Assembly: GCA_038141665.1 (NCBI GenBank)
Contig: JAYQIN010000002.1
Span: 208,263 to 272,262, forward strand
DNA from: Thiothrix sp.
Lineage (GTDB): Bacteria; Pseudomonadota; Gammaproteobacteria; Poriferisulfidales; GCA-002705445
Direction: 5' to 3'
Length of the DNA stretch: 64,000 nt
The notes under the pieces were generated by a model. It was not told the origin of the DNA. It worked only from the letters and a program-made list of their open reading frames with translations, and did not search any database. Position 1 is the stretch's first letter. Every line of letters begins with the position of its first letter. Shown piece by piece: positions 17,186 through 64,000 of this stretch. Both the position numbers and the translations under genes were made by a program.

Positions 17186-18540
17186 CTAAAACTTTTTTAG
17201 CTCTTTTTCGGATAAATTAGTTTCCTCAAGGGCGATTTCAATAATAGGCTTCCCTGTTTTGTATGCTTTTTTAGCTATAAAAGCACCTTTTTCATAACCT
17301 ATAACTCTATTTAAGGCAGTTACTAATATTGGATTAGCATTAATAGATTTATTAACAATAGCTTCGTTAACTTTAAAATCTAGAATTGATTTTTTAGATA
17401 AACTTACTGCAGTATTTGAAATAATATTTATGCTTTGTACAATATTATAAGCAATAATTGGTAAAGTTACATTTAGTTGAAAATTACCAGTCTGACCACA
17501 AACCATAATCGTAGTATCATTGCCTATAACTTGTGAGCATGCCATTATTGCTGACTCAGGAATCACAGGATTAACTTTTCCAGGCATTATACTACTTCCA
17601 GGCTGTAAAGCATTTAAAGTTATATCAGAAATCCCAGATCCTGGTCCAGAGTTCATCCACCTCAAGTCATTTGAAATTTTAATTAAAGAAACAGCTAAAG
17701 ATTTTAAATGTGAACTAAATAGAACAATATCATCTTGTGAGCTTAAACCCTCAAATTTATTTTTTTTATCAGTATACTTAATTGTACTTTCCGCATTTAA
17801 CGATTTTATGCATTCTCTTGTAAATAATTTATGCGCATTAATCCCTGTGCCAACTGCTGTTCCACCTATGGGTAATCTTTTTAATCTCATAATACAAGTT
17901 TTTAAACTAGCCAAGTTATCATCTATTTGAGCTTTCCAGCCCGATATCTCTTGTCCAAAAGTAACTGGCATTGCATCCATAAGATGCGTTCTACCAGTTT
18001 TGACAACTTTATTTAGTTTCTTTGATTTTGTATTAAGATCTTTTGATAAAATATTTAAAGACGGAACTAACTTTGTTAAAGCCAAATTATAGGCACAATG
18101 ATTTATACCAGTAGGAATAACATCATTTGAACTCTGTGACATATTTACATGGTCATTTGGATGCACGTTTATTTTAAATTTTTTTTCGCAATGTTTGATA
18201 TAACTTCATTTACATTCATATTTGTACTAGTACCTGATCCTGTCTGAAAAACATCTACTGGGAAATGATCAACATCATAGAAATTAATTAAATACTTTGC
18301 AGATTTTACAATTGCATCGCTAATTTTTTTATCCAACAAACCTAATTTATAGTTAGCCTTCGCGGCAGCAATCTTAATTAATAAAATGCTTACAATAAAT
18401 TCTTTTGGCATTACTAAATCACTGATAGCAAAATTATCAATAGCCCTTTGCGTCTGTGGACCATACAAAGCATTTTTAGGTATATCTACTTTACCCATAC
18501 TGTCTTTTTCAATTCTGAAGTTATTTTTTTGATTTTTCAT
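17186..18540 (-). pseudogene. fumC: Class II fumarate hydratase with a frameshift in a T8/A8 homopolymer (probably a sequencing indel)
   Basis: ORF 18169-18540 gives the N-terminus through [15 protein letters not shown]...IAKKNLK and then stops. ORF 17186-18166 continues with HPNDHVNMSQSSNDV and GSSIMPGKVNP. Adding one A in the run at 18179-18186 fuses them into a ~455 aa FumC. Confidence 0.85.
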
Positions 18541-46401: not shown

Positions 46402-46765
46402 ATTTTTTTTTATTTTTTTTAAAAATAAAGTATATATAAAGAGCGGAAACTAAAAGAATAATAAAAGGGCTATACCATAAAAACCAAGTAGATTTTTTTA
46501 GAGGAGGATTATATAAAACATAATCAGTGTATCTATCAGACATGAATTTATATATTTCGTCTTCATTCTTACCAAGATCTAACATTGTTTTTACTTTTGC
46601 TCTTAAGTCTTTTGCTAAATTTGAGTCAGATTCGGAAAGTGATTGATTTTGACATACTAAGCACCTAAGATTCTCAATAATTTCATTGTATTTTCTTTCA
46701 TCTAAGGCATGCGAAATATTTTGTGAAAAAAGTATAACTAGTATAAGTATAATTTTTCTTTTCAT
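46394..46765 (-). CDS. ccmH: Cytochrome c-type biogenesis protein CcmH/CycL
   Basis: Signal peptide, the LRCLVCQNQSL (CxxC) motif and a C-terminal TM. Confidence 0.85.
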   Translation of the reverse strand: MKRKIILILVILFSQNISHALDERKYNEIIENLRCLVCQNQSLSESDSNLAKDLRAKVKTMLDLGKNEDEIYKFMSDRYTDYVLYNPPLKKSTWFLWYSPFIILLVSALYIYFIFKKNKKKFE

Positions 46766-47280
46766 TATTTTAAGTTTGGTAATATTACTTTATTATAATA
46801 ATTTTCATCTATTGGTCCAACGTGTTTGTGAATTATAATTCCTTTTTTATCTATTAAAAAAGTTTCGGGAGCACCATAAACTCCAAAATCAATTGCAATA
46901 TTTCCTTTGTTGTCATATATATTATATTTGTAAGGGTTTCCTCTAACTTTCAACCATTCTAAAGCTGAACCTCTATTATCTTTATAATTTAAACCATATA
47001 TGTTGATAGTGCCACGTGAGTAAATATCTATTAAATGCTTGTGTTCTATACTGCATGCATAGCACCAGCTTCCCCATACATTAAGAATGTGCATTTCTCC
47101 AAGTAAGTCATTGTTATTAATTTTCTGATTATCAATTAAAGTGATAGATGAAAAAGTTGGCATTGCTTTACCAATCAAAGGAGATGGTATTAGCGTTGGA
47201 TCTTTGTTTAAACCACTATAAAGAAAGTATAGTATTACTAAAAAAATTAATATAGGTAAGACAGAAAGTTTATGAAGCAT
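46765..47280 (-). CDS. ccmG: Thiol:disulfide interchange protein CcmG/DsbE
   Basis: Thioredoxin fold with WCYAC and a GVYGAPETFLID motif. Confidence 0.85.
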   Translation of the reverse strand: MLHKLSVLPILIFLVILYFLYSGLNKDPTLIPSPLIGKAMPTFSSITLIDNQKINNNDLLGEMHILNVWGSWCYACSIEHKHLIDIYSRGTINIYGLNYKDNRGSALEWLKVRGNPYKYNIYDNKGNIAIDFGVYGAPETFLIDKKGIIIHKHVGPIDENYYNKVILPNLK

Positions 47281-49223
47281 TAGTAATTTTTTTTTCTATT
47301 TTATTTCTGCCAAATATACCAAATAAACCACCTAAAATCATTAATCCAACACCGTACCACAAGAATTGAATATATGGCTTATAATATATTCTTACAACCC
47401 ACGAATCTTTTCCAATATTTTCACCCAATGCTAAGTATATATCTCTGAAAAGACTAGAATCTATAGCAGCCTCTGTCATAACGTTTTTTTGAACACTATA
47501 GGTTCTCTTTTCAGGAAAGAAAGATACTAAATAATTATTATCTAAATAAGCATCAAAAATTCCAACCTGAGAAGTGTAATTTTTAGAAAATTTTGTTTGC
47601 ACATCAACAAATTTTATAGAAACATTGCTAATCATTACTTCTGAATTCTTATTCATTACTATTTCTTTCTGAATTGAATAATAATTACTTATAGTTATTC
47701 CAATAATTAGAACTCCAATACCTATATGTGATAAAAGATTCGCTAAAGATGATGCTGGTATATTAATAATTTTTTCTATAATTTTTTTGCCGTTTGAGAT
47801 CTTTGAAACTTGAAATATCTTTATAACAGAAGATAAAATAGTAAATACTGCTAAAAACATTGCAAGATATACAATAAGAATATCAGTTTCATAATATATA
47901 CTTAGAAATAAGTATGAAATTATAATTGAATAAAATAAAATATAACTAAGTTTCTTGACTAAAATTTTGTGATTTGATTTACTCCAACTGCTATATATGG
48001 CTGGAGACATAAGGAAAACTATTGGAAGTGTCAATGCCGAAAATATAAAATTAAAATATGGCGCTCCAACAGAAATTTTACCTAAATTTAACGAACTGGT
48101 AACTAAGGGATACAAAGTTCCAATTAATATTGCAAAAGTAGTAATTGTTAAAAATAGGTTATTCAATAAGAGTAAAAATTCTTTTGATGATACAGAATAT
48201 TGCTTATGAAATATTAAATTACGCGACTTTAAAAAATATAACGCTAATGAAGAGCCAATGATTGTTGTTAAAAATATTAATATGTAAAGACCTCTCTCGG
48301 GGTCATTTGCAAATGCATGTACAGAAACTAAGATTCCTGACCTAACTAAAAATGTTCCAAGCAAACTTAGTGAAAAGGTCAATATAGAAAGTAAAATACT
48401 CCAGTTAATAAATATTCCTCTTTTTTCAGAAACTATCAAAGAATGCAATAACGCAGTTATAGCTAACCATGGCATAAAAGATGCGTTTTCTACTGGATCC
48501 CAAAACCACCAGCCTCCCCAACCTAACTCATGATATGCCCACCAGCTTCCTAGAGAAATTCCAATTGTTAAAAACATCCATGATGATATCACCCATTTTC
48601 GTAACCATGATATCCATTCAATATTAATACTTCCATGTAAAAGAACGGAAATAGCAAACACAAATGGTACGCTTGTGCCCACATATCCTATGTATAACAT
48701 TGGAGGGTGTATTATTAAACCTGGGTCTTGTAAGAAGTGGGTTAAGGTCTCTTCCATTTAATGGAATAGGAAAAACTCTATCAAATGGGTTTGAACTAAA
48801 TAGTATAAATATTAAAAAAAATAATAATAAAAGACCCATTATAGATAACATGTCAACTATAAGTGTTTTGGGCATACTTTTAGAAAATATTGCTATTAAG
48901 GAACACCAAATTGACATAACAAAAACCCATAATAATATTGAGCCTTCATGTGCACCCCATACCGCAGAAAATTTATATACATTCTCTAAATTAATATTTG
49001 AGTTATTTGCAACATACCTTAAAGAAAAGTCATCAATTAAAAAGGCGTAAGCAAGAATAAAAAAAGAAGTAGCAATAAATATAGAAGTAATGTAGGAAAA
49101 GTTCCTGCAAAAAATAAATCTCGAGCTAATACTTATAGTATTTTTAAAAAAAATAAGAGCAAACATGCAAAATGAAAGTGAAGCTGAAATACTTAGAAAA
49201 ATATTACCTAATTCATTAATCAT
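47270..49223 (-). pseudogene. ccmF: Cytochrome c heme lyase subunit CcmF, interrupted by a 1-nt frameshift (probably a sequencing or assembly indel)
   Basis: ORF 48624-49223 has the N-terminus through ...NPFDRVFPIPLNGRDLNPLL. ORF 47270-48757 continues with QDPGLIIHPPMLYIGYVG and WGGWWFWDPVEN. The two frames meet at ctt-ctt-a-caa-gac (about 48730-48732), where one extra base breaks DLNPLLQDPGL. Confidence 0.85.
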
Positions 49224-58294: not shown

Positions 58295-58684
58295 ATGAGT
58301 AATATTACTGTAAAAGAAATGATTAAAGCTGCAAAAGCGAATATAGTTGAATTATCTGTTGAAGATGTAAAAAATTTTCTTGATTCAGATAACCATATTA
58401 TAATTGATTTAAGAGACACTGCCGAATTAATTGAAAATGGAATTATTCCTGGTTCACATCATTCTTCTAGAGGTCATCTAGAGTTTTTTGCTGACCCGGA
58501 GTGTGAATATTACAAAGATTTTTTTGATAAAAATAAAAATATTATTTTATATTGTCATTCAGGTGCTAGGTCAGCTCTTGCCTCAGAAACACTAAAAAGG
58601 ATGGGTTATAAGAAAGTATCTCACATGAAAGGTGGTTTCAAGCAATGGATGAAAAAAATTGGAATTATTGATGATCATGAATAA
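58295..58684 (+). CDS. Single-domain rhodanese (sulfurtransferase)
   Basis: 129 aa with the active-site loop YCHSGARS. Confidence 0.75.
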   Translation: MSNITVKEMIKAAKANIVELSVEDVKNFLDSDNHIIIDLRDTAELIENGIIPGSHHSSRGHLEFFADPECEYYKDFFDKNKNIILYCHSGARSALASETLKRMGYKKVSHMKGGFKQWMKKIGIIDDHE

Positions 58685-59826: not shown

Positions 59827-60099
59827 ATGCCTAAATTTATAATTGAAAGAGATATAAATGATGCTGGATCTTTAACAACTGACGAACTTCAAGGAATTTC
59901 ACAAAAATCATGCTCGGTATTGAAAAAACTTGGCACTGATATTCAGTGGGTTGAAAGCTATGTAACAAAAGATAAAGTTTATTGTGTTTATATTGCTCCA
60001 AATGAAGAATTAATCAAAGAGCATGCTAAAGAAGGTGGATTTCCTGCAAATAAAATTAGCGCTATAACAAAAACAATAGACCCAACTACATCAGAATAA
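59827..60099 (+). CDS. DUF4242 family small protein
   Basis: 90 aa with MPKFIIERDI, YCVYIAPNEELIKEHAKEGGFPANKI. This matches the DUF4242 pattern MPxFMDxH...FCLxEAPDxEAxxxxHxEAHGLxAD. Confidence 0.5.
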   Translation: MPKFIIERDINDAGSLTTDELQGISQKSCSVLKKLGTDIQWVESYVTKDKVYCVYIAPNEELIKEHAKEGGFPANKISAITKTIDPTTSE

Positions 60100-60106
60100 A
60101 TAAGTC

Positions 60107-60619
60107 CTAATTAATGATGGTTTTAAAAAATGAAGTGAATTCAGAGCTATCCCACTCTTTTTCACCTTCAATCTTGTAAATAATTTTACCGCTTCCATCA
60201 ATTAAAAAAGTTGTTGGTATAGCTTGAATATTCCAGTCTGAAAGCTCCATATTTTCATCTAATAATACGGGAAAATCAATAGATAAGGATTTATCAATAA
60301 AAAACTTTTCAATTACGCCTTTATTTTGTCCAATATTAATAGCTATCATTTTAAAATTACTAGTTTCCTTAAAATGCTCATTGAGGTTGTTTAGGGATGG
60401 TATTTCTTTTACACATGGTGCACACCAAGTAGCCCAGAAATTTATCAGTACAAATGAGTTTGAATAATCTTTTAAATTAATATAATTTCCCTTTAAATCA
60501 GGCAAATTAAAACTTGGATAATTATCTTCTTTTACTTTAGTCATTGGAGAATTTTTAATTTCAGAGCATGAAAATAAAAAAACTAAAACTAGAGGAAATA
60601 AATATAATACTTTTTTCAT
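60107..60619 (-). CDS. TlpA/ResA-like thioredoxin-fold thiol:disulfide oxidoreductase lipoprotein
   Basis: WATWCAPC active site. The likely start is MKKVLYLFPLVLVFLFSC (lipobox) at 60619, whereas the ORF track extends to 60649. Confidence 0.75.
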   Translation of the reverse strand: MKKVLYLFPLVLVFLFSCSEIKNSPMTKVKEDNYPSFNLPDLKGNYINLKDYSNSFVLINFWATWCAPCVKEIPSLNNLNEHFKETSNFKMIAINIGQNKGVIEKFFIDKSLSIDFPVLLDENMELSDWNIQAIPTTFLIDGSGKIIYKIEGEKEWDSSEFTSFFKTIIN

Positions 60620-60620
60620 A

Positions 60621-61955
60621 TTATTTATTATACCCCATATCCTTATCATTAGCCCAATTTGGGTCTTCTTTTGTTAAATCACCGACAGGTACGGATAATG
60701 CATCAGCAATTAAAATATTAATATTTTCTCCAACTAACGATTCTAAGAAAAACTTTAAATTCTCTTTTTCATCCATTGTTAAATTTAATTTTTTAATCTT
60801 TGGGCTAAGTAATTCATTGCTAAATCCTCCATTATTATAGAAATCTATTACTTCATCTAAATTACTAAAAATACCATTGTGCATATATGGTGCAGTTAAT
60901 GAAATATTCCTTAAACTTGGAGTTTTAAATAGCCATCGATGAGAGGGGTTTTCGGTCACCGAATATAAGCCCAAATCATTATTTTTTTTCTGTTGGTTTA
61001 CGCTACTGATTATATCATTGTCTACCTCTACATATTCGCCAGGAGCAAGTTGCACTGTCGTTTTATTCTTTTTATTAATACCCATGGATTCTGCGTAACC
61101 TACTCCAGTATTGTGCAATTTATTGTCAAAGAAAAGTGCTTCATTTTTATTAATAAGGTGACAGCTAGAGCAGTTGCCTTTTCCCACAAATATTTCAAAA
61201 CCTTTTTTTACCTTATCATTAACAGCATCCTTTTCACCTCCATAGAACCATTTATCAAAAGACGAGTTTCCTGATATCAATGATCGTTCGTAGCTTGCGA
61301 TTGCCTTACCAAATGTTTCCATATTTATTCCTTCTCCAGGAAAAGCATCTTCAAAAAGTTTTTTATAACCTGGTATTAGCTCAAGTTTTTTAATAGTGAA
61401 CCCAAATGATGGCATAGCCATTTCAGAATGTGCTAATACAGGTTGCCAAACCTGATTTTCTAACGAAAACTCTCTTGCATCATGAAATAGGAATTTATTA
61501 AAAGCAACATTTAATAAAGTTGGTGTATTTCTTAAATTGGACCTTCCTTCTATTCCTACTGCTGTCTTGATTTCATTACTAGTAAAACCTTGTTCAGGAA
61601 CATGACACATCCCACATGACATTGTGTTATTCAGCGAAAGCCTTCTATCAAAAAATAATTTTTTCCCAAGTTCAATTTTTTTTCTTGTTATTGGATTATT
61701 TTTTGGAATTACTAATTCAGGCAAGCCTAATTGTTTGATAGTTACATATTTTAGTAAGTCTGCTTTTTTTCCTTTTCTGTCACTTAAGCTTAAAGAGTTT
61801 GTTGTATAGGATTTTGATTCATACCCATCTTTATTGTCTCCAGGGCCTGAGTAGCTTGTATTTTCGCTTCCTACGGCTAACTTGCTGAAGAAAAGCAATA
61901 TTAGAAAAATTGAAAACTTATATCTGGTTATATTGTTAAAAAATGTCTCACTCAT
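60621..61955 (-). CDS. Di-heme cytochrome c peroxidase family protein (CCP/MauG-like)
   Basis: Signal peptide and two CxxCH heme motifs (CGMCH, CSSCH); 444 aa. Confidence 0.8.
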   Translation of the reverse strand: MSETFFNNITRYKFSIFLILLFFSKLAVGSENTSYSGPGDNKDGYESKSYTTNSLSLSDRKGKKADLLKYVTIKQLGLPELVIPKNNPITRKKIELGKKLFFDRRLSLNNTMSCGMCHVPEQGFTSNEIKTAVGIEGRSNLRNTPTLLNVAFNKFLFHDAREFSLENQVWQPVLAHSEMAMPSFGFTIKKLELIPGYKKLFEDAFPGEGINMETFGKAIASYERSLISGNSSFDKWFYGGEKDAVNDKVKKGFEIFVGKGNCSSCHLINKNEALFFDNKLHNTGVGYAESMGINKKNKTTVQLAPGEYVEVDNDIISSVNQQKKNNDLGLYSVTENPSHRWLFKTPSLRNISLTAPYMHNGIFSNLDEVIDFYNNGGFSNELLSPKIKKLNLTMDEKENLKFFLESLVGENINILIADALSVPVGDLTKEDPNWANDKDMGYNK

Positions 61956-62655
61956 TCCCTAATAATAGAGTTTTTATGTCGTTTATCAATAGATCTGGGT
62001 GAAGAAAATCTACATTGTATACATTTCTTATAAGTTTTTTGTCGTCTATTAAAAAGACACGCAATAAATGTGACTCTACTCCTGCATAACTACCATCATT
62101 ATTATACTTTCTTATAACTGGTTGGTCATAACTCTCGAGAATTGGTTCTAGACTATCTAATGAATTTGTAGTTAAAAAATCCCAATCAGCTTTAACATAA
62201 CTTAAATCTTTTCCATAAAGTTTCATTATTTCAGGAGTGTCGTAAAACGGATCAAAGCTTAAACTAATCATCTTTATTTTTGAAAGCATTTTTGGATTTT
62301 CTTTTAATTTTTCTTGAATTTTAAAAAAAACTGATGTTGCAAGCGGACAACCATTTGTATCAGTACAATTACTATATATGAAGCTCATTAATGTAATTTT
62401 GCCATCCATTAACTTATGTAAAGAGTTATTTTTACCATTTTCTTCTACAATTTTTCCATCTCCTGCTTCTCTTATATTATATAAACTATACGTACCAGGT
62501 AACGGAAGTTCGTATCCCAAATTGTCTCTCCAGCCTAAGGCTAAATTATTTCTTTCTTCTTTAATAAGATTTCTTTCTTGCTCTAGATCTTTGGAAGCAA
62601 AGACTAAGTTGCTAATTAATACTATTGTAATTGTAATTTTTAAAAAATTTTTCAT
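61948..62655 (-). CDS. SCO1/SenC copper chaperone-like protein
   Basis: Signal peptide and a thioredoxin fold with CxxxC-type motif (FIYSNCTDTNGCP), cf. SCO1 YTHCPDVCP. Confidence 0.7.
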   Translation of the reverse strand: MKNFLKITITIVLISNLVFASKDLEQERNLIKEERNNLALGWRDNLGYELPLPGTYSLYNIREAGDGKIVEENGKNNSLHKLMDGKITLMSFIYSNCTDTNGCPLATSVFFKIQEKLKENPKMLSKIKMISLSFDPFYDTPEIMKLYGKDLSYVKADWDFLTTNSLDSLEPILESYDQPVIRKYNNDGSYAGVESHLLRVFLIDDKKLIRNVYNVDFLHPDLLINDIKTLLLGNE

Positions 62656-62668
62656 AATTATTATTGAA

Positions 62669-62697
62669 AATAAAAAAGGCTAACCAAAGTTAGCCTT
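62669..62697 (-). terminator. Rho-independent terminator downstream of mtoX
   Basis: On the minus strand a perfect 9-bp inverted repeat AAGGCTAAC-tttgg-GTTAGCCTT is followed by TTTTTTATTTT, 30 bp after the mtoX stop. Confidence 0.6.
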
Positions 62698-62727
62698 AAT
62701 TTTATCACCTTATTAGTAAACTTTAAA

Positions 62728-64000
62728 TTACTTATCTAATAATGTTACTTCTTTTTTATTATTTTCGCTTTTACTTGAATATAAAGAATATGCGCCAAAT
62801 CTCATTTGATGCGCTCTTCCTAATTTTTCTTTATAAAAGTCTATTGTCCATTTGTGAGACAATTCTAAAGACTCTTCATCCCATTCATAAAGTTTAACCC
62901 ACTGCTCATCTGCTTCTCCTGTTTTATCCCAATTTCCTAGAAGCGATGTAGAGAAATATGCTCTTTTCCCATCCCAACTTTGTGAAATCATATTTACTTG
63001 AGAACCAATTGTTTCTTCATATTTTTGAACAGGATTAAATGGATCTGAAATATCAAAGTATCTAGCTTTGCCATCCATAAATGTGTCTACCCAAAGCCCT
63101 TGATCATCAGCTGTTATTGAGATATCAACAGGCAATGGAACTTTAGAAGCGTCACCTATATCAGCTACAGCTTTACCTTGCCATTCGCCATTATCATCTT
63201 CATATATTAACCAGATTTTCGATGTAAGTGCTGTTGTTGTAAAACAGTAGTTATTATTTGCACCCCACGCACATCTTATTTCTAATGGTGCTCCTGGAAC
63301 ATCGATAACTTTTTTAGGTTTTCTTGTATGTAAATCCCAAACTACCATTGTATTTCCAAACCTTTTCATAGCTTCGCCATCTTGCAGCATTTGTCCGAAA
63401 TCCATCATGTAATTTGACCATCCAGTAAACGAGGATGTTAACATTACATTTCTTCTAGGTTGTACACGAACGTCATATCCATAACCATCAGCGTATTTAC
63501 CTTCTTTCTTAGCACCTCTTAGATCGCTGGCTGTTGGCAACCAATGAGTCGCAATAAACTCACCTTTACTATTATATTCTGCTAATGCAGTTCTCCCGCC
63601 GTTATCTTTATTGTTTGATAACCCAGATACCATTATTCTTCCTGGTAAGGCATAGAAAGTATGAGGACCAACAACTCCACCTGTTTTCTCAACAAAATCA
63701 GTAATTACTTTGTGTAAAGTTGGCTTTCTTGGGTCTGTATGGACATCAAAAATAAATATTTTATTGCTGTCTAGACCACCAGCCCACAAGTAGTGTCTAT
63801 CATCGCTCAATCCGGAGTGATGAGCTTCATTTCTTCCGCCAACGGAAAGAACACTTACAACTTTTGCGTAAGTTTTAGATTTTGGATTAACATCAATTGT
63901 AACTAATTTGTCCTGTTCATCACCAAGGCCTTCAACACCCAAAGTCCAAACATAAACGTAATCCTCTTGACCGACGATTTTTGCCATATATGGTGACATA
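62728..64000 (-). CDS. mtoX: Selenium-binding protein family (SBP56) methanethiol oxidase; N-terminus beyond window end
   Basis: >420 aa matching SBP56/MTO throughout. The Met at 63999 sits at the window edge, so the true start and signal peptide lie beyond the window. Confidence 0.8.
   Translation of the reverse strand, partial: MSPYMAKIVGQEDYVYVWTLGVEGLGDEQDKLVTIDVNPKSKTYAKVVSVLSVGGRNEAHHSGLSDDRHYLWAGGLDSNKIFIFDVHTDPRKPTLHKVITDFVEKTGGVVGPHTFYALPGRIMVSGLSNNKDNGGRTALAEYNSKGEFIATHWLPTASDLRGAKKEGKYADGYGYDVRVQPRRNVMLTSSFTGWSNYMMDFGQMLQDGEAMKRFGNTMVVWDLHTRKPKKVIDVPGAPLEIRCAWGANNNYCFTTTALTSKIWLIYEDDNGEWQGKAVADIGDASKVPLPVDISITADDQGLWVDTFMDGKARYFDISDPFNPVQKYEETIGSQVNMISQSWDGKRAYFSTSLLGNWDKTGEADEQWVKLYEWDEESLELSHKWTIDFYKEKLGRAHQMRFGAYSLYSSKSENNKKEVTLLDK

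Follow-up and report, generated by a model that had tools for sequence, protein, structure and literature searches.

Does a run of four genes at the end of a 64,000-nucleotide stretch of bacterial DNA (the whole stretch analysed, here called the window) encode a methanethiol oxidase together with the proteins that mature it, or do the accompanying genes serve another purpose? We consider it likely that these genes form an operon for methanethiol oxidase such as was first known from Hyphomicrobium sp. VS and Ruegeria pomeroyi, in which the helper genes would serve maturation of MtoX. The cluster type is an ordinary one, a previously described bacterial copper-enzyme gene cluster for methanethiol breakdown, and here it belongs to the core chromosome of a marine gammaproteobacterium that is uncultured and low in GC (28.6%). 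The genes for MtoX and for the SCO1/SenC-like, MauG-like and TlpA-like proteins were all located where an earlier reading made from the sequence alone (the sequence-only reading) had placed them, all on the (-) strand.

Identity of the SBP56 protein

The mtoX gene (62728..>64000, (-)) encodes a predicted periplasmic Cu-dependent methanethiol oxidase of the SBP56 family (Pfam SBP56, E = 4e-53). The gene is truncated by the window end, with 423 of about 451 codons present, and the ATG listed for it at 63999 is an internal Met. Because relatives show the complete protein, the missing part can be given as 24 signal-peptide residues followed by the mature N-terminal DETC; neither the signal peptide nor the essential Cys at the N-terminus is covered by the window. 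Export by the Tat pathway had been suggested, but the signal peptides of MtoX relatives are of the Sec type, with no Tat signal in the clade. Upstream of mtoX in relative L162 (97.4% identical) lie a promoter close to consensus (TTGACG-16 nt-CATAAT) and a ribosome-binding site, GAGG.

Pfam assigns the protein to the generic SBP56 family only, and the sole solved structure matched by sequence is an uncharacterised protein of S. tokodaii (2ECE), as would be expected if the protein bound selenium or were some other non-MTO paralogue acting in a cluster with a different substrate. We regard this as extremely improbable. The protein scores 736 bits with the curated NCBIfam equivalog model 'methanethiol oxidase' (NF052453, cutoff 650) and is 68.7% identical over 407 aligned residues to the genetically proven R. 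pomeroyi enzyme SPOA0269, above the 52% identity that Eyice et al. used as the orthologue criterion for MtoX (PMC5739008). Identity is 60–69% to the MtoX clade and at most 31% to other SBP56 proteins (plasmid collection); the equivalog model and this split together place the protein with characterised MtoX and apart from other paralogues, as the sequence-only reading had supposed.

Residue mapping points the same way. The proposed Cu ligands His60/His61 (63822..63817), His113 (63663..63661) and His397 (62811..62809) and the proposed cofactor residues Trp194 (63420..63418) and Trp357 (62931..62929) align with RpMTO His88/89, His141, His424, Trp223 and Trp386, the residues named as Cu or cofactor residues in PMC10936201, and by this alignment MtoX retains every proposed copper and cofactor residue. 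The TTQ cofactor of MTO is a proposed one. The gene context likewise matches that of proven enzymes. Judged by sequence comparison, the window encodes a genuine MtoX, orthologous to the proven enzymes.

Gene order and linkage in related genomes

The arrangement mtoX-SCO1/senC-mauG had been recognised as a described one, and it is indeed that of Eyice et al. 2018 (PMC5739008). Each gene had been said to overlap the next, which holds for the senC/mauG junction only (8 nt, ATGAGTGA, 61955..61948): mtoX and senC are separated by a 72-nt spacer containing a terminator-like hairpin, and mauG and tlpA do not overlap if the preferred tlpA start is used. From that start, ATG 60619, which follows the mauG stop by 1 nt, the product carries the signal peptide of a lipoprotein (MKKVLYLFPLVLVFLFSC), in agreement with relatives; the alternative first ATG at 60649 would give a 29-nt overlap.

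Linkage was surveyed in 80 related genomes, with 77 loci counted for senC, 73 for mauG and 69 for tlpA. The companion genes proved linked there as well, senC following mtoX in at least 68/77 loci, mauG belonging to the mtoX cluster in 66/73, and tlpA following mauG in 40/69 (two copies in 17); tlpA is missing in R. pomeroyi and in about 40% of related loci. Neither outcome that the sequence-only reading had named as refuting it, clustering with non-MTO paralogues or unlinked companion genes, was observed. At the methanotroph-type loci L069, L072, L076 and L078, senC and mauG are fused into one gene, which suggests that the di-heme protein shares a task with the copper-handling protein. The wider expectation that the organism channels DMSP- or methanethiol-derived sulfur and C1 units found no other support in the 64 kb: no DMSP or C1 genes were found in the window, and the remaining genes examined are housekeeping genes.

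The SCO1/SenC-like protein and the hairpin before its gene

The SCO1/SenC-like protein (61948..62655, (-)) has a thioredoxin fold and a signal peptide and scores 43 bits with Pfam SCO1-SenC (cutoff 22.8). By alignment, its putative Cu site comprises Cys97 (62367..62365), Cys103 (62349..62347) and His196 (62070..62068). The canonical CX3CP motif is absent and C-T-D-T-N-G-C-P (CX5CP) is found instead; in the alignment to B. subtilis Sco (1ON4), the Cys and His residues match, with a 2-residue insertion between the cysteines. All full-length mtoX-linked SenC proteins, that of R. pomeroyi included, share C-x-[DE]-x-[NG]-G-C.

The hairpin, identified by scanning for intrinsic terminators, occupies 62676..62697 on the (-) strand with a 9-bp stem and a 4-nt loop (62697..62676: AAGGCTAAC-TTTG-GTTAGCCTT, then TTTTATTTT) and is followed by a T-run (62675..62666). 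Sites of this type number 7 in the region, compared with 1.7 ± 1.2 in shuffled sequences. Of 67 related loci, 53 have a hairpin with a T-run in the 160 nt past the mtoX stop codon, and R. pomeroyi also has one after mtoX; the frequency is 0/63 after mauG and 2–4% in coding controls. The conserved hairpins comprise 49 distinct stem sequences, with compensatory pair changes within the low-GC clade, a pattern that shows the mtoX-senC hairpin to be conserved in structure. Conservation would fit abundant enzyme and scarce helper expression; the hairpin of the sequence-only reading is thus upheld, while the attenuation that it attached to the hairpin is something we infer.

Shaped like a strong intrinsic terminator, the hairpin might instead stop transcription fully and leave senC-mauG-tlpA as a separate unit for general copper-protein assembly, for example of cytochrome oxidase. 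The best-known role of TlpA and SCO proteins is in assembly of the cytochrome oxidase CuA centre, and a site resembling a promoter (TTTAAA-17 nt-TAAAAT with TG, 62727..62699) lies directly upstream of the hairpin. Such sites are, however, not enriched in the region (18 versus 20.8 in shuffles), and the 20 nt between the hairpin and the senC start codon leave no space for a promoter downstream of it. At each locus with a CX5C senC-like gene, that gene directly follows mtoX, divergent CX5C members adjoin SBP56 genes in 3/3 look-ups, and related genomes carry a second, separate canonical CX3CP SCO1 upstream of the cluster. In R. pomeroyi, SPOA0268-0272 are all induced together (PMC5739008). A separate unit therefore seems to us highly unlikely, and we favour a single operon with limited read-through. 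Neither senC nor tlpA has a Shine-Dalgarno-like sequence upstream.

The MauG-like and TlpA-like proteins

The MauG-like di-heme protein (60621..61955, (-)) belongs to the bCCP_MauG superfamily (Pfam CCP_MauG, 169 bits) and has a signal peptide and two CxxCH haem motifs, CGMCH (61616..61602) and CSSCH (61172..61158). Alignments against PDB entries for CCPs, MauG and BthA place Tyr373 (60839..60837) at the position of the MauG haem ligand Tyr294 and of the BthA tyrosine, and His158 (61484..61482) in place of the inter-haem Trp of CCP and MauG. In relatives, the latter column contains His in 37, Leu in 22 and Trp in 2.

The TlpA/ResA-like protein (60107..60619, (-)) is a predicted periplasmic thiol:disulfide oxidoreductase and probable lipoprotein, with lipobox Cys18 (60568..60566) and active site W-C66-A-P-C69 (60424..60413). 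Its gene abuts mauG with no terminator between, and the housekeeping cytochrome c maturation reductase, ccmG/dsbE, is a separate gene at 46765..47280.

These two proteins could alternatively provide local oxidant defence, the di-heme peroxidase clearing H2O2 formed by MtoX and the TlpA/AhpC-like protein protecting or repairing periplasmic thiols. The N-terminal domain of the di-heme protein is closer to true cytochrome c peroxidases (138 bits) than to MauG (90 bits), and the best Pfam matches of the thioredoxin are AhpC-TSA and Redoxin, with Thioredoxin also matched. BthA Tyr mutants retain peroxidase turnover (PMC6405878), so Tyr ligation is compatible with peroxidase activity, and recombinant Rhodobacteraceae MTOs produced in E. 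coli without helpers were active (PMC10936201), which means that the helpers may be dispensable or only stimulatory. Against this, Tyr replaces the peroxidase Met ligand in 69/70 mtoX-linked sequences, whereas an unlinked CCP paralogue in L076 keeps Met; the senC-mauG fusions suggest a task shared with copper handling; the WCxPC motif is of the thioredoxin/TlpA and not of the peroxiredoxin type; and the Rhodobacteraceae MTOs tested produced no H2O2 (PMC10936201). We judge oxidant defence unlikely.

A SCO4226-like neighbour

Convergent with tlpA, with stop codons 7 nt apart, lies a gene for a SCO4226-like 90-aa cytoplasmic protein (59827..60099, (+); PF14026, former DUF4242, E = 1e-27), the clade of which has invariant Cys29, Cys53 and His66. 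Such a gene occurs near mtoX in 31/60 evaluable loci, with 63–99% identity and varying position and orientation; in metagenome loci of its relatives (57–73% identity, at least 3 kb on both sides), mtoX is absent from 16/19. The gene is a candidate for association with the cluster rather than an established member.

A possible maturation pathway

We infer the roles of all helper genes from sequence. MtoX would be exported unfolded through the Sec pathway and receive copper in the periplasm from the SenC-like protein (Cys97, Cys103, His196), and the Tyr/His-ligated MauG-like haem enzyme would oxidatively modify Trp194 and Trp357. The mature enzyme would oxidise methanethiol with O2 to formaldehyde and sulfide or sulfane sulfur. 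The TlpA-like lipoprotein may keep the SCO cysteine pair, and possibly the N-terminal Cys of MtoX, reduced for copper binding, a role modelled on TlpA action on ScoI and CoxB in Bradyrhizobium. The hairpin would stop or stabilise most transcripts past mtoX, with only read-through reaching senC-mauG-tlpA, yielding much enzyme and few maturation factors. Features that speak against maturation include a SenC-like protein without CX3CP, a MauG-like protein that is without the inter-haem Trp and scores under the NCBIfam MauG and MbnH cutoffs, the closer match of its N-terminal domain to peroxidases, the absence of tlpA from R. pomeroyi and the activity of recombinant MTOs made without helpers. A literature search that included model organisms returned no study in which a contribution of SCO1 or MauG to MTO maturation was tested genetically.

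Comparison with known systems

Gene order and strand are the same as in the operon of R. pomeroyi DSS-3 (SPOA0269-0271) and Hyphomicrobium sp. VS (PMC5739008). R. pomeroyi shares with this clade the start of mature MtoX, DETC, as well as the His and Trp residues of the enzyme, its SenC has C-x-D-x-N-G-C and its MauG-like partner the Tyr ligand; the N-terminus of purified Hyphomicrobium MTO was sequenced as DETX, corresponding to DETC of the relatives here. In contrast to those operons, neither an upstream IclR regulator nor a downstream S-(hydroxymethyl)glutathione dehydrogenase is present; mauG is followed by a gene for a TlpA-like thioredoxin, which the published operon description does not include; a SCO4226-like gene and a second canonical SCO1 flank the cluster in relatives; and the signal peptide is Sec-type, unlike the twin-arginine-like KRREF of R. 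pomeroyi. We searched the literature and found no description of the TlpA-like gene, the CX5CP SenC, the MauG-like protein with Tyr and without Trp, the SCO4226-like gene or the second SCO1.

With MauG of methylamine dehydrogenase (TTQ biosynthesis, PDB 3L4M), the MauG-like protein has in common c-type di-heme character, two CxxCH motifs, Tyr at the Tyr294 position and a gene beside that of the enzyme modified or proposed as target. It differs in scoring 197 bits with TTQ_mauG (cutoff 444), in having His at the Trp93 position (His or Leu in most relatives) and in carrying an insert of some 58 residues that the aligned peroxidases lack. Methylamine dehydrogenase genes are absent here, and the target and chemistry of the MauG-like protein are putative. 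A close functional analogy is offered by MbnH, by which a Trp residue in a copper-binding partner protein is modified. MbnH/MbnP and BthA (PDB 6NX0, 6E1C) are other Tyr/His-ligated bCCP_MauG members; MbnH is the best NCBIfam match (237 bits, under the cutoff of 363), and BthA, the best C-terminal PDB match, shares PYMHxG...FYxxGG and likewise lacks the inter-haem Trp. Unlike with MbnH, the partner here is an SBP56 beta-propeller and not MbnP, and there are no methanobactin genes.

In Bradyrhizobium diazoefficiens TlpA-ScoI-CoxB, a membrane-tethered periplasmic CxPC reductase acts with a SCO-type protein, a pairing also encoded here, and the SCO cysteine pair must be reduced before copper binding (PMC6669012). 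At 80 bits, the TlpA-like protein falls short of the TlpA equivalog cutoff, 230 (ResA, 109 bits, also under cutoff). Its probable membrane anchor is a lipobox in place of a transmembrane helix, and its clients would be a soluble periplasmic oxidase and a SCO protein of the CX5CP type rather than cytochrome oxidase subunit II. A PDB search with the SCO4226-like protein gave no significant direct match, only a weak spurious one to vicilin (E 0.005). The nickel-binding protein SCO4226 of Streptomyces coelicolor (PMC4186839) is of the same PF14026 family and similar size (about 82–90 residues); in contrast to it, the clade here has two invariant Cys and one invariant His and recurs beside a copper enzyme cluster.

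Layout and conservation of the mtoX cluster

ORF listing and Pfam domain assignment placed four consecutive ORFs on the minus strand of positions 60107-64000, and all four genes named in an earlier, sequence-only reading were found there with the domains it had given them: an SBP56 protein (mtoX, 62728..63999; Pfam SBP56, E 4e-53), an SCO1-SenC protein (senC, 61948..62655; PF02630, 43.3 bits, cutoff 22.8), a CCP_MauG di-heme protein (mauG, 60621..61955; Pfam, 169 bits) and a TlpA-like protein with AhpC-TSA/Redoxin/Thioredoxin Pfam domains (60107..60649), with SCO1/senC and mauG directly downstream of mtoX. The same reading had each gene overlapping the next, which holds for senC and mauG only (8 nt, ATGAGTGA); mtoX and senC lie 72 nt apart, and the tlpA-like gene does not overlap mauG when read from its most likely start, ATG 60619, 1 nt past the mauG stop, a start that results in a lipoprotein signal peptide (MKKVLYLFPLVLVFLFSC). 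mtoX extends beyond the window: its ATG at 63999 encodes an internal Met, and a Cys codon has its final base at 64000; its residue numbers refer to the part inside the window. A further gene on the plus strand (59827..60099) encodes a cytoplasmic SCO4226-like protein of 90 residues, a member of the Pfam DUF4242 family.

A scan with one genome per species returned 80 related loci with MtoX proteins 75-95% identical, nearly all labelled Gammaproteobacteria, and their neighbouring genes were counted by tblastn at loci with enough flanking DNA. A senC-like gene directly 3' of mtoX was present at 68 or more of 77 loci and a mauG-like gene at 66 of 73, so that the linkage of companion genes in related genomes, on which the sequence-only reading had staked its proposed module, is retained. 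A tlpA-like gene was found at 40/69 loci and an SCO4226-like gene at 31/60. The few helper-less loci include extra mtoX copies from genomes that also have the full cluster. Additional mtoX genes, standing either alone without helpers or as a tandem duplicate, were seen at the compared loci L027, L029, L034, L051, L052, L057, L058, L062 and L073 (8349..9602), and the metagenome-assembled genome (MAG) CBDCUI01 has three mtoX loci (L016, L057, L062), with helper genes only at L016. The closest relatives of the window are marine MAGs and single-cell genomes, which share the gene order around the cluster.

Assignment of the SBP56 protein as a methanethiol oxidase

SBP56 proteins include paralogues of methanethiol oxidase (MTO), and the window protein could be one of these. 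Against this, it scored 736 bits on the NCBIfam equivalog model NF052453 'methanethiol oxidase' (cutoff 650) despite its N-terminal truncation, and in tblastn searches against plasmids it shared 68.7% identity across 95% of its length with mtoX on the megaplasmid of Ruegeria pomeroyi DSS-3 (SPOA0269, hereafter RpMTO), a genetically proven enzyme. In the same searches, five other proteins of the MtoX clade were 60-67% identical to the window protein and all other SBP56 proteins at most 31%, giving a clearly split distribution. The window protein therefore lies above the 52% identity or more that Eyice et al. used to define orthologues (PMC5739008) and stands apart from the other SBP56 paralogues. 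The alignment further revealed that the proposed copper ligands of RpMTO, His88/89, His141 and His424 (PMC10936201), are kept as His60/61, His113 and His397 in the window, as are the proposed precursors of a tryptophan tryptophylquinone (TTQ), Trp223 and Trp386 (PMC10936201), as Trp194 and Trp357. A sequence search for a solved MTO structure returned only 2ECE, an uncharacterised SBP56 protein of S. tokodaii. At the level of sequence, these comparisons show the orthology of the window MtoX with proven enzymes, and the cluster shows a predicted capacity for methanethiol oxidation.

Cys28 of RpMTO, the cysteine in the mature N-terminal motif DETC, is needed for activity, and its counterpart lies one codon outside the window. 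The missing N-terminus is supplied by L162, a relative on a 1.1-Mb metagenome contig that is 97.4% identical over 12 kb, as MHLRKFGISLFGVMMLAASSFTVA followed by DETC. The DETC motif is invariant in the 76 related genes in which it was found, in agreement with the sequenced N-terminus DETX of the purified Hyphomicrobium enzyme (PMC5739008), and a Sec-type signal peptide preceding it is seen in L162 and in 71 of the 76. The Tat signal that the sequence-only reading had wanted looked for on the full-length protein did not turn up: RR is absent in 71/76 signal peptides, the rest being over-extended ORF calls, and since the signal peptides of the clade are without twin arginine, export would proceed by Sec. 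R. pomeroyi MtoX (L001, 5914..7224) alone has a twin-arginine-like KRREF in its signal peptide, and the export route of the same enzyme may differ between R. pomeroyi and the gammaproteobacterial clade.

Base composition across mtoX (window 62500..64000) is 0.37-0.39 GC compared with 0.27-0.31 in neighbouring genes. MtoX remains 75-95% identical among hosts whose GC contents span 0.28 to 0.69, pointing to very strong constraint on the protein, or else to lateral spread.

A CX5CP variant of SCO and a second, canonical SCO1

The SenC-like protein aligned over residues 71-229 with the thioredoxin fold of B. subtilis Sco (1ON4); the two cysteines and the histidine match up, and two additional residues stand between the cysteines (FIYSNC-TDTNG-CP versus FIFTNC-ET-ICP). 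SCO proteins are defined by CX3CP and a distant His (PMC6669012); the His is aligned in the window protein, and the two extra residues replace the canonical motif by C-TDTNG-C-P (CX5CP), for which reason we refer to the protein as SCO-like. It is a putative copper-binding protein. The signature C-x-[DE]-x-[NG]-G-C occurs in every full-length mtoX-linked SenC among 81 loci, including the R. pomeroyi partner SPOA0270, and in 13 more divergent database homologues; the three of these whose context was checked (42-49% identity) all sit directly after an SBP56 gene. At four methanotroph-type loci senC and mauG are fused, a fusion that Eyice et al. reported in Methylophaga (PMC5739008).

A canonical CX3CP SCO1, divergent from and immediately upstream of mtoX, was found at 27 of 73 related loci, among them L162 (7860..8444) and the close relative L003 (9170..9772), in both cases on the minus strand; its motif is FLNCPDICP and its Pfam score 145 bits. 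As it is present in L162, this gene almost certainly lies just outside the window. No cytochrome oxidase genes adjoin it. Two copper atoms per monomer have been reported for the MTO enzyme, and it may not be a coincidence that two SCO-type proteins flank it.

Di-heme and thioredoxin-like partners

The di-heme protein carries two c-type haem motifs, CGMCH and CSSCH. In PDB alignments, its N-terminal domain matched cytochrome c peroxidases (CCP; 138 bits) better than MauG (90 bits), and its C-terminal domain had BthA as the best match. Tyr373 (IDFYNN) aligns with MauG Tyr294 (ILFYNK), the axial ligand of the six-coordinate haem, a position at which peroxidases have a Met ligand, and Tyr is found there in 69 of 70 aligned relatives; a CCP paralogue in the L076 genome that is unlinked to mtoX has Met. 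The inter-haem Trp (FWDGR; Trp94 of CCP, Trp93 of MauG) is not kept, the window protein having FHDAR with His158, and among the 70 sequences of the clade this position has 37 His, 22 Leu, 4 Gln, 3 Ala and 2 Trp. BthA is likewise without the inter-haem Trp. Scores stayed below the NCBIfam cutoffs both for the nearest family, MbnH (237 bits, cutoff 363), and for TTQ_mauG (197 bits, cutoff 444), and the window ORFs that were examined included no mau (methylamine dehydrogenase) genes. By these sequence features, the di-heme protein is MauG-like, not MauG.

The TlpA-like protein has the active site WCAPC and a signal peptide with the lipobox LFSC. Because it scored below the cutoffs for the ResA subfamily (109 bits versus 170) and the TlpA equivalog (80 versus 230), we assign it only at the family level (TlpA/ResA/CcmG); the housekeeping ccmG/dsbE is a separate gene in the window's ccm operon (46765..47280). 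Two tandem tlpA-like copies, with CxxC in both, occur at 17 loci. These pairs follow mauG in higher-GC relatives (L011, L012, L014-L016, L019-L021, L023-L026, L030, L036, L044, L049, L073); the first copy has S-C-x-x-C and the second W-C-x-P-C, and the single gene of the window corresponds to the second.

A conserved hairpin between mtoX and senC

The terminator hairpin that the sequence-only reading had placed between mtoX and senC was located at 62697..62676, followed by TTTTATTTT; the region as a whole contains 7 terminator-like sites compared with 1.7 +/- 1.2 in shuffles. Relatives were scored as having a hairpin when the first 160 nt past the mtoX stop contained a stem with 6 or more pairs, 3 or more of them G-C, and then 5 or more T in 8 nt. 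By this rule 53 of 67 loci have one; the same rule gave 0/63 after mauG, 9/67 near the senC stop and 2-4% for coding stretches of equal length. A stricter detector was blind where A-T pairs absorb the T-run (27 of 67); the controls, too, were scored with the relaxed rule. The hairpins comprise 49 distinct stem-loop sequences over GC contents from 0.28 to 0.69, the low-GC clade shows double compensatory changes at 4 of 12 hairpin pairs, and R. pomeroyi has a G+C-rich hairpin with TTTT inside its 67-nt mtoX-senC spacer. Together with the difference from the controls, this argues that the structure has been selected and is not a chance match.

Transcription of senC from a promoter of its own was considered and rejected, as promoter-like sites are not enriched (18 versus 20.8 in shuffles). 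The window hairpin ends 20 nt 5' of the senC ATG, which leaves no space for a promoter after it, and the promoter-like site at 62727..62699, just upstream of the hairpin, is a prediction. Upstream of mtoX, L162 has TTGACG-16 nt-CATAAT and a GAGG ribosome-binding site; senC and tlpA are without a Shine-Dalgarno-like sequence. These features fit the idea, put forward with the hairpin, of abundant enzyme and scarce helpers, and the hairpin may act either by partial termination or by stabilising the processed mtoX mRNA.

The SCO4226-like gene and the genomic surroundings

Across mtoX loci the SCO4226-like protein is 63-99% identical, with Cys29, Cys53 and His66 invariant. Its gene follows tlpA convergently at 28 loci, lies upstream of mtoX and co-oriented with it at 2 and is placed otherwise at 1, and this conservation at varying position suggests a functional link with mtoX. 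Soil and freshwater contigs commonly carry relatives at 57-73% identity. An exclusive partnership was rejected: in a metagenome scan seeded with the SCO4226-like protein, mtoX was missing from 16 of the 19 loci flanked by 3 kb or more on each side, and the neighbours were unrelated (M61 and M3 peptidases, thrS/infC, TetR, a methyltransferase). We therefore treat the protein as a candidate associate of the cluster only. At two loci on unrelated metagenome contigs (L127, 8367..9536; L129, 8299..9468), a 389-residue beta-propeller follows the SCO4226-like gene; its first blade matches the MtoX model weakly (E 8.5e-11 and 3.6e-8), with its AHH aligned on the EAHH His pair of MtoX.

The window has a GC content of 28.6%, and the other ORFs examined are core housekeeping genes (fab, acn, fumC, purB, thrC, hom, moeA/moaA, ribD/ribBA, glyA, nrdR, kdsB, lpxK, msbA, lolCDE, ccmA-H, mfd, mscS, nagZ). 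The sequence-only reading had proposed a flux of sulfur and C1 units derived from DMSP and methanethiol; among the ORFs scanned in the 64 kb there were no genes for DMSP demethylation, methionine gamma-lyase, formaldehyde oxidation or sulfur oxidation. A single-domain rhodanese with a CHSGARS active-site loop (58295..58684, plus strand) lies ~1.4 kb from the cluster, a linkage conserved only in the closest relatives (L002-L008), and could handle sulfane sulfur, the product reported for Rhodobacteraceae MTOs. Two core genes on the minus strand appear frameshifted: fumC is split into 18169..18540 and 17186..18166 within or beside a poly-A run (gcgaaaaaaaatttaaaataaacgtgcat, 18166..18171), by a homopolymer sequencing error or as a pseudogene, and a ccmF/nrfE-type haem lyase (47270..49223) is read as two ORFs, 48624..49223 and 47270..48757, overlapping by ~134 nt, which fits assembly errors in the window sequence.

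Proposed maturation and comparison with known systems

The locus combines all proposed active-site residues of MtoX with tight linkage to helper genes and a conserved hairpin. In the maturation pathway we propose, MtoX would be exported via the Sec pathway and receive copper from the SCO-like protein, and the Tyr/His di-heme enzyme would oxidatively modify its tryptophans, by analogy with MauG. MbnH/MbnP provides a second analogy for oxidative tryptophan modification. The hairpin would set differential expression of enzyme and helpers. Judging from gene context and the Bradyrhizobium TlpA-ScoI pair (PMC6669012), the TlpA-like protein would reduce the cysteine pair of the SCO-like protein and perhaps also the N-terminal Cys of MtoX. 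Recombinant Rhodobacteraceae MTOs produced in E. coli are active (PMC10936201), which counts against a strict requirement for maturation, and the literature searched contained no genetic tests of the helper genes. The main rival to maturation is that the di-heme and thioredoxin proteins provide local peroxide or thiol defence.

A further-reaching version of the maturation reading, which we consider rather unlikely, is that the mtoX operon of a large marine/sediment gammaproteobacterial clade is an extended copper-maturation module of five or six genes. Such a module would comprise a dedicated SCO variant (CxDxNGCP, CX5CP), found only beside mtoX in the loci examined; a di-heme enzyme with Tyr ligation in which the inter-haem tryptophan has been lost; a single TlpA-like reductase or a pair of them; another SCO1, canonical and divergent from mtoX, which would fit the reported two Cu per monomer; a strongly conserved cytoplasmic SCO4226-like protein; and a structurally conserved intra-operon terminator setting the enzyme:helper ratio. 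The literature searched gave no description of an extended five- or six-gene mtoX module, and full-text searches for mtoX together with TlpA or thioredoxin, or with DUF4242 or SCO4226, returned nothing relevant. Nor did it mention that SCO proteins linked to mtoX have a CX5CP signature, that their MauG-like neighbours have lost the inter-haem Trp, that mtoX clusters frequently include one or more TlpA-like genes, that a second, canonical SCO1 can lie divergent to mtoX, or that the intra-operon hairpin is conserved.

In marine sulfur cycling the oxidation of methanethiol is an acknowledged step, and with this locus a further uncultured pelagic gammaproteobacterium with a streamlined genome joins the likely consumers of methanethiol, a result of annotation value and no surprise. 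Of more use to enzymologists are the comparative by-products: as judged from the alignments, MtoX has an SCO partner of a separate CX5CP subfamily and a MauG-like partner that retains the Tyr ligand without the hopping Trp, and in many genomes the operon includes a TlpA-like reductase and a conserved terminator hairpin. They offer testable handles on how the MTO copper and the proposed tryptophan-derived cofactor may be assembled. The core arrangement mtoX-SCO1/senC-mauG has been published (PMC5739008) and a curated NCBI model names the protein, so the locus belongs to a known type, to which the five features absent from the literature searched add modest refinements and not a new system.
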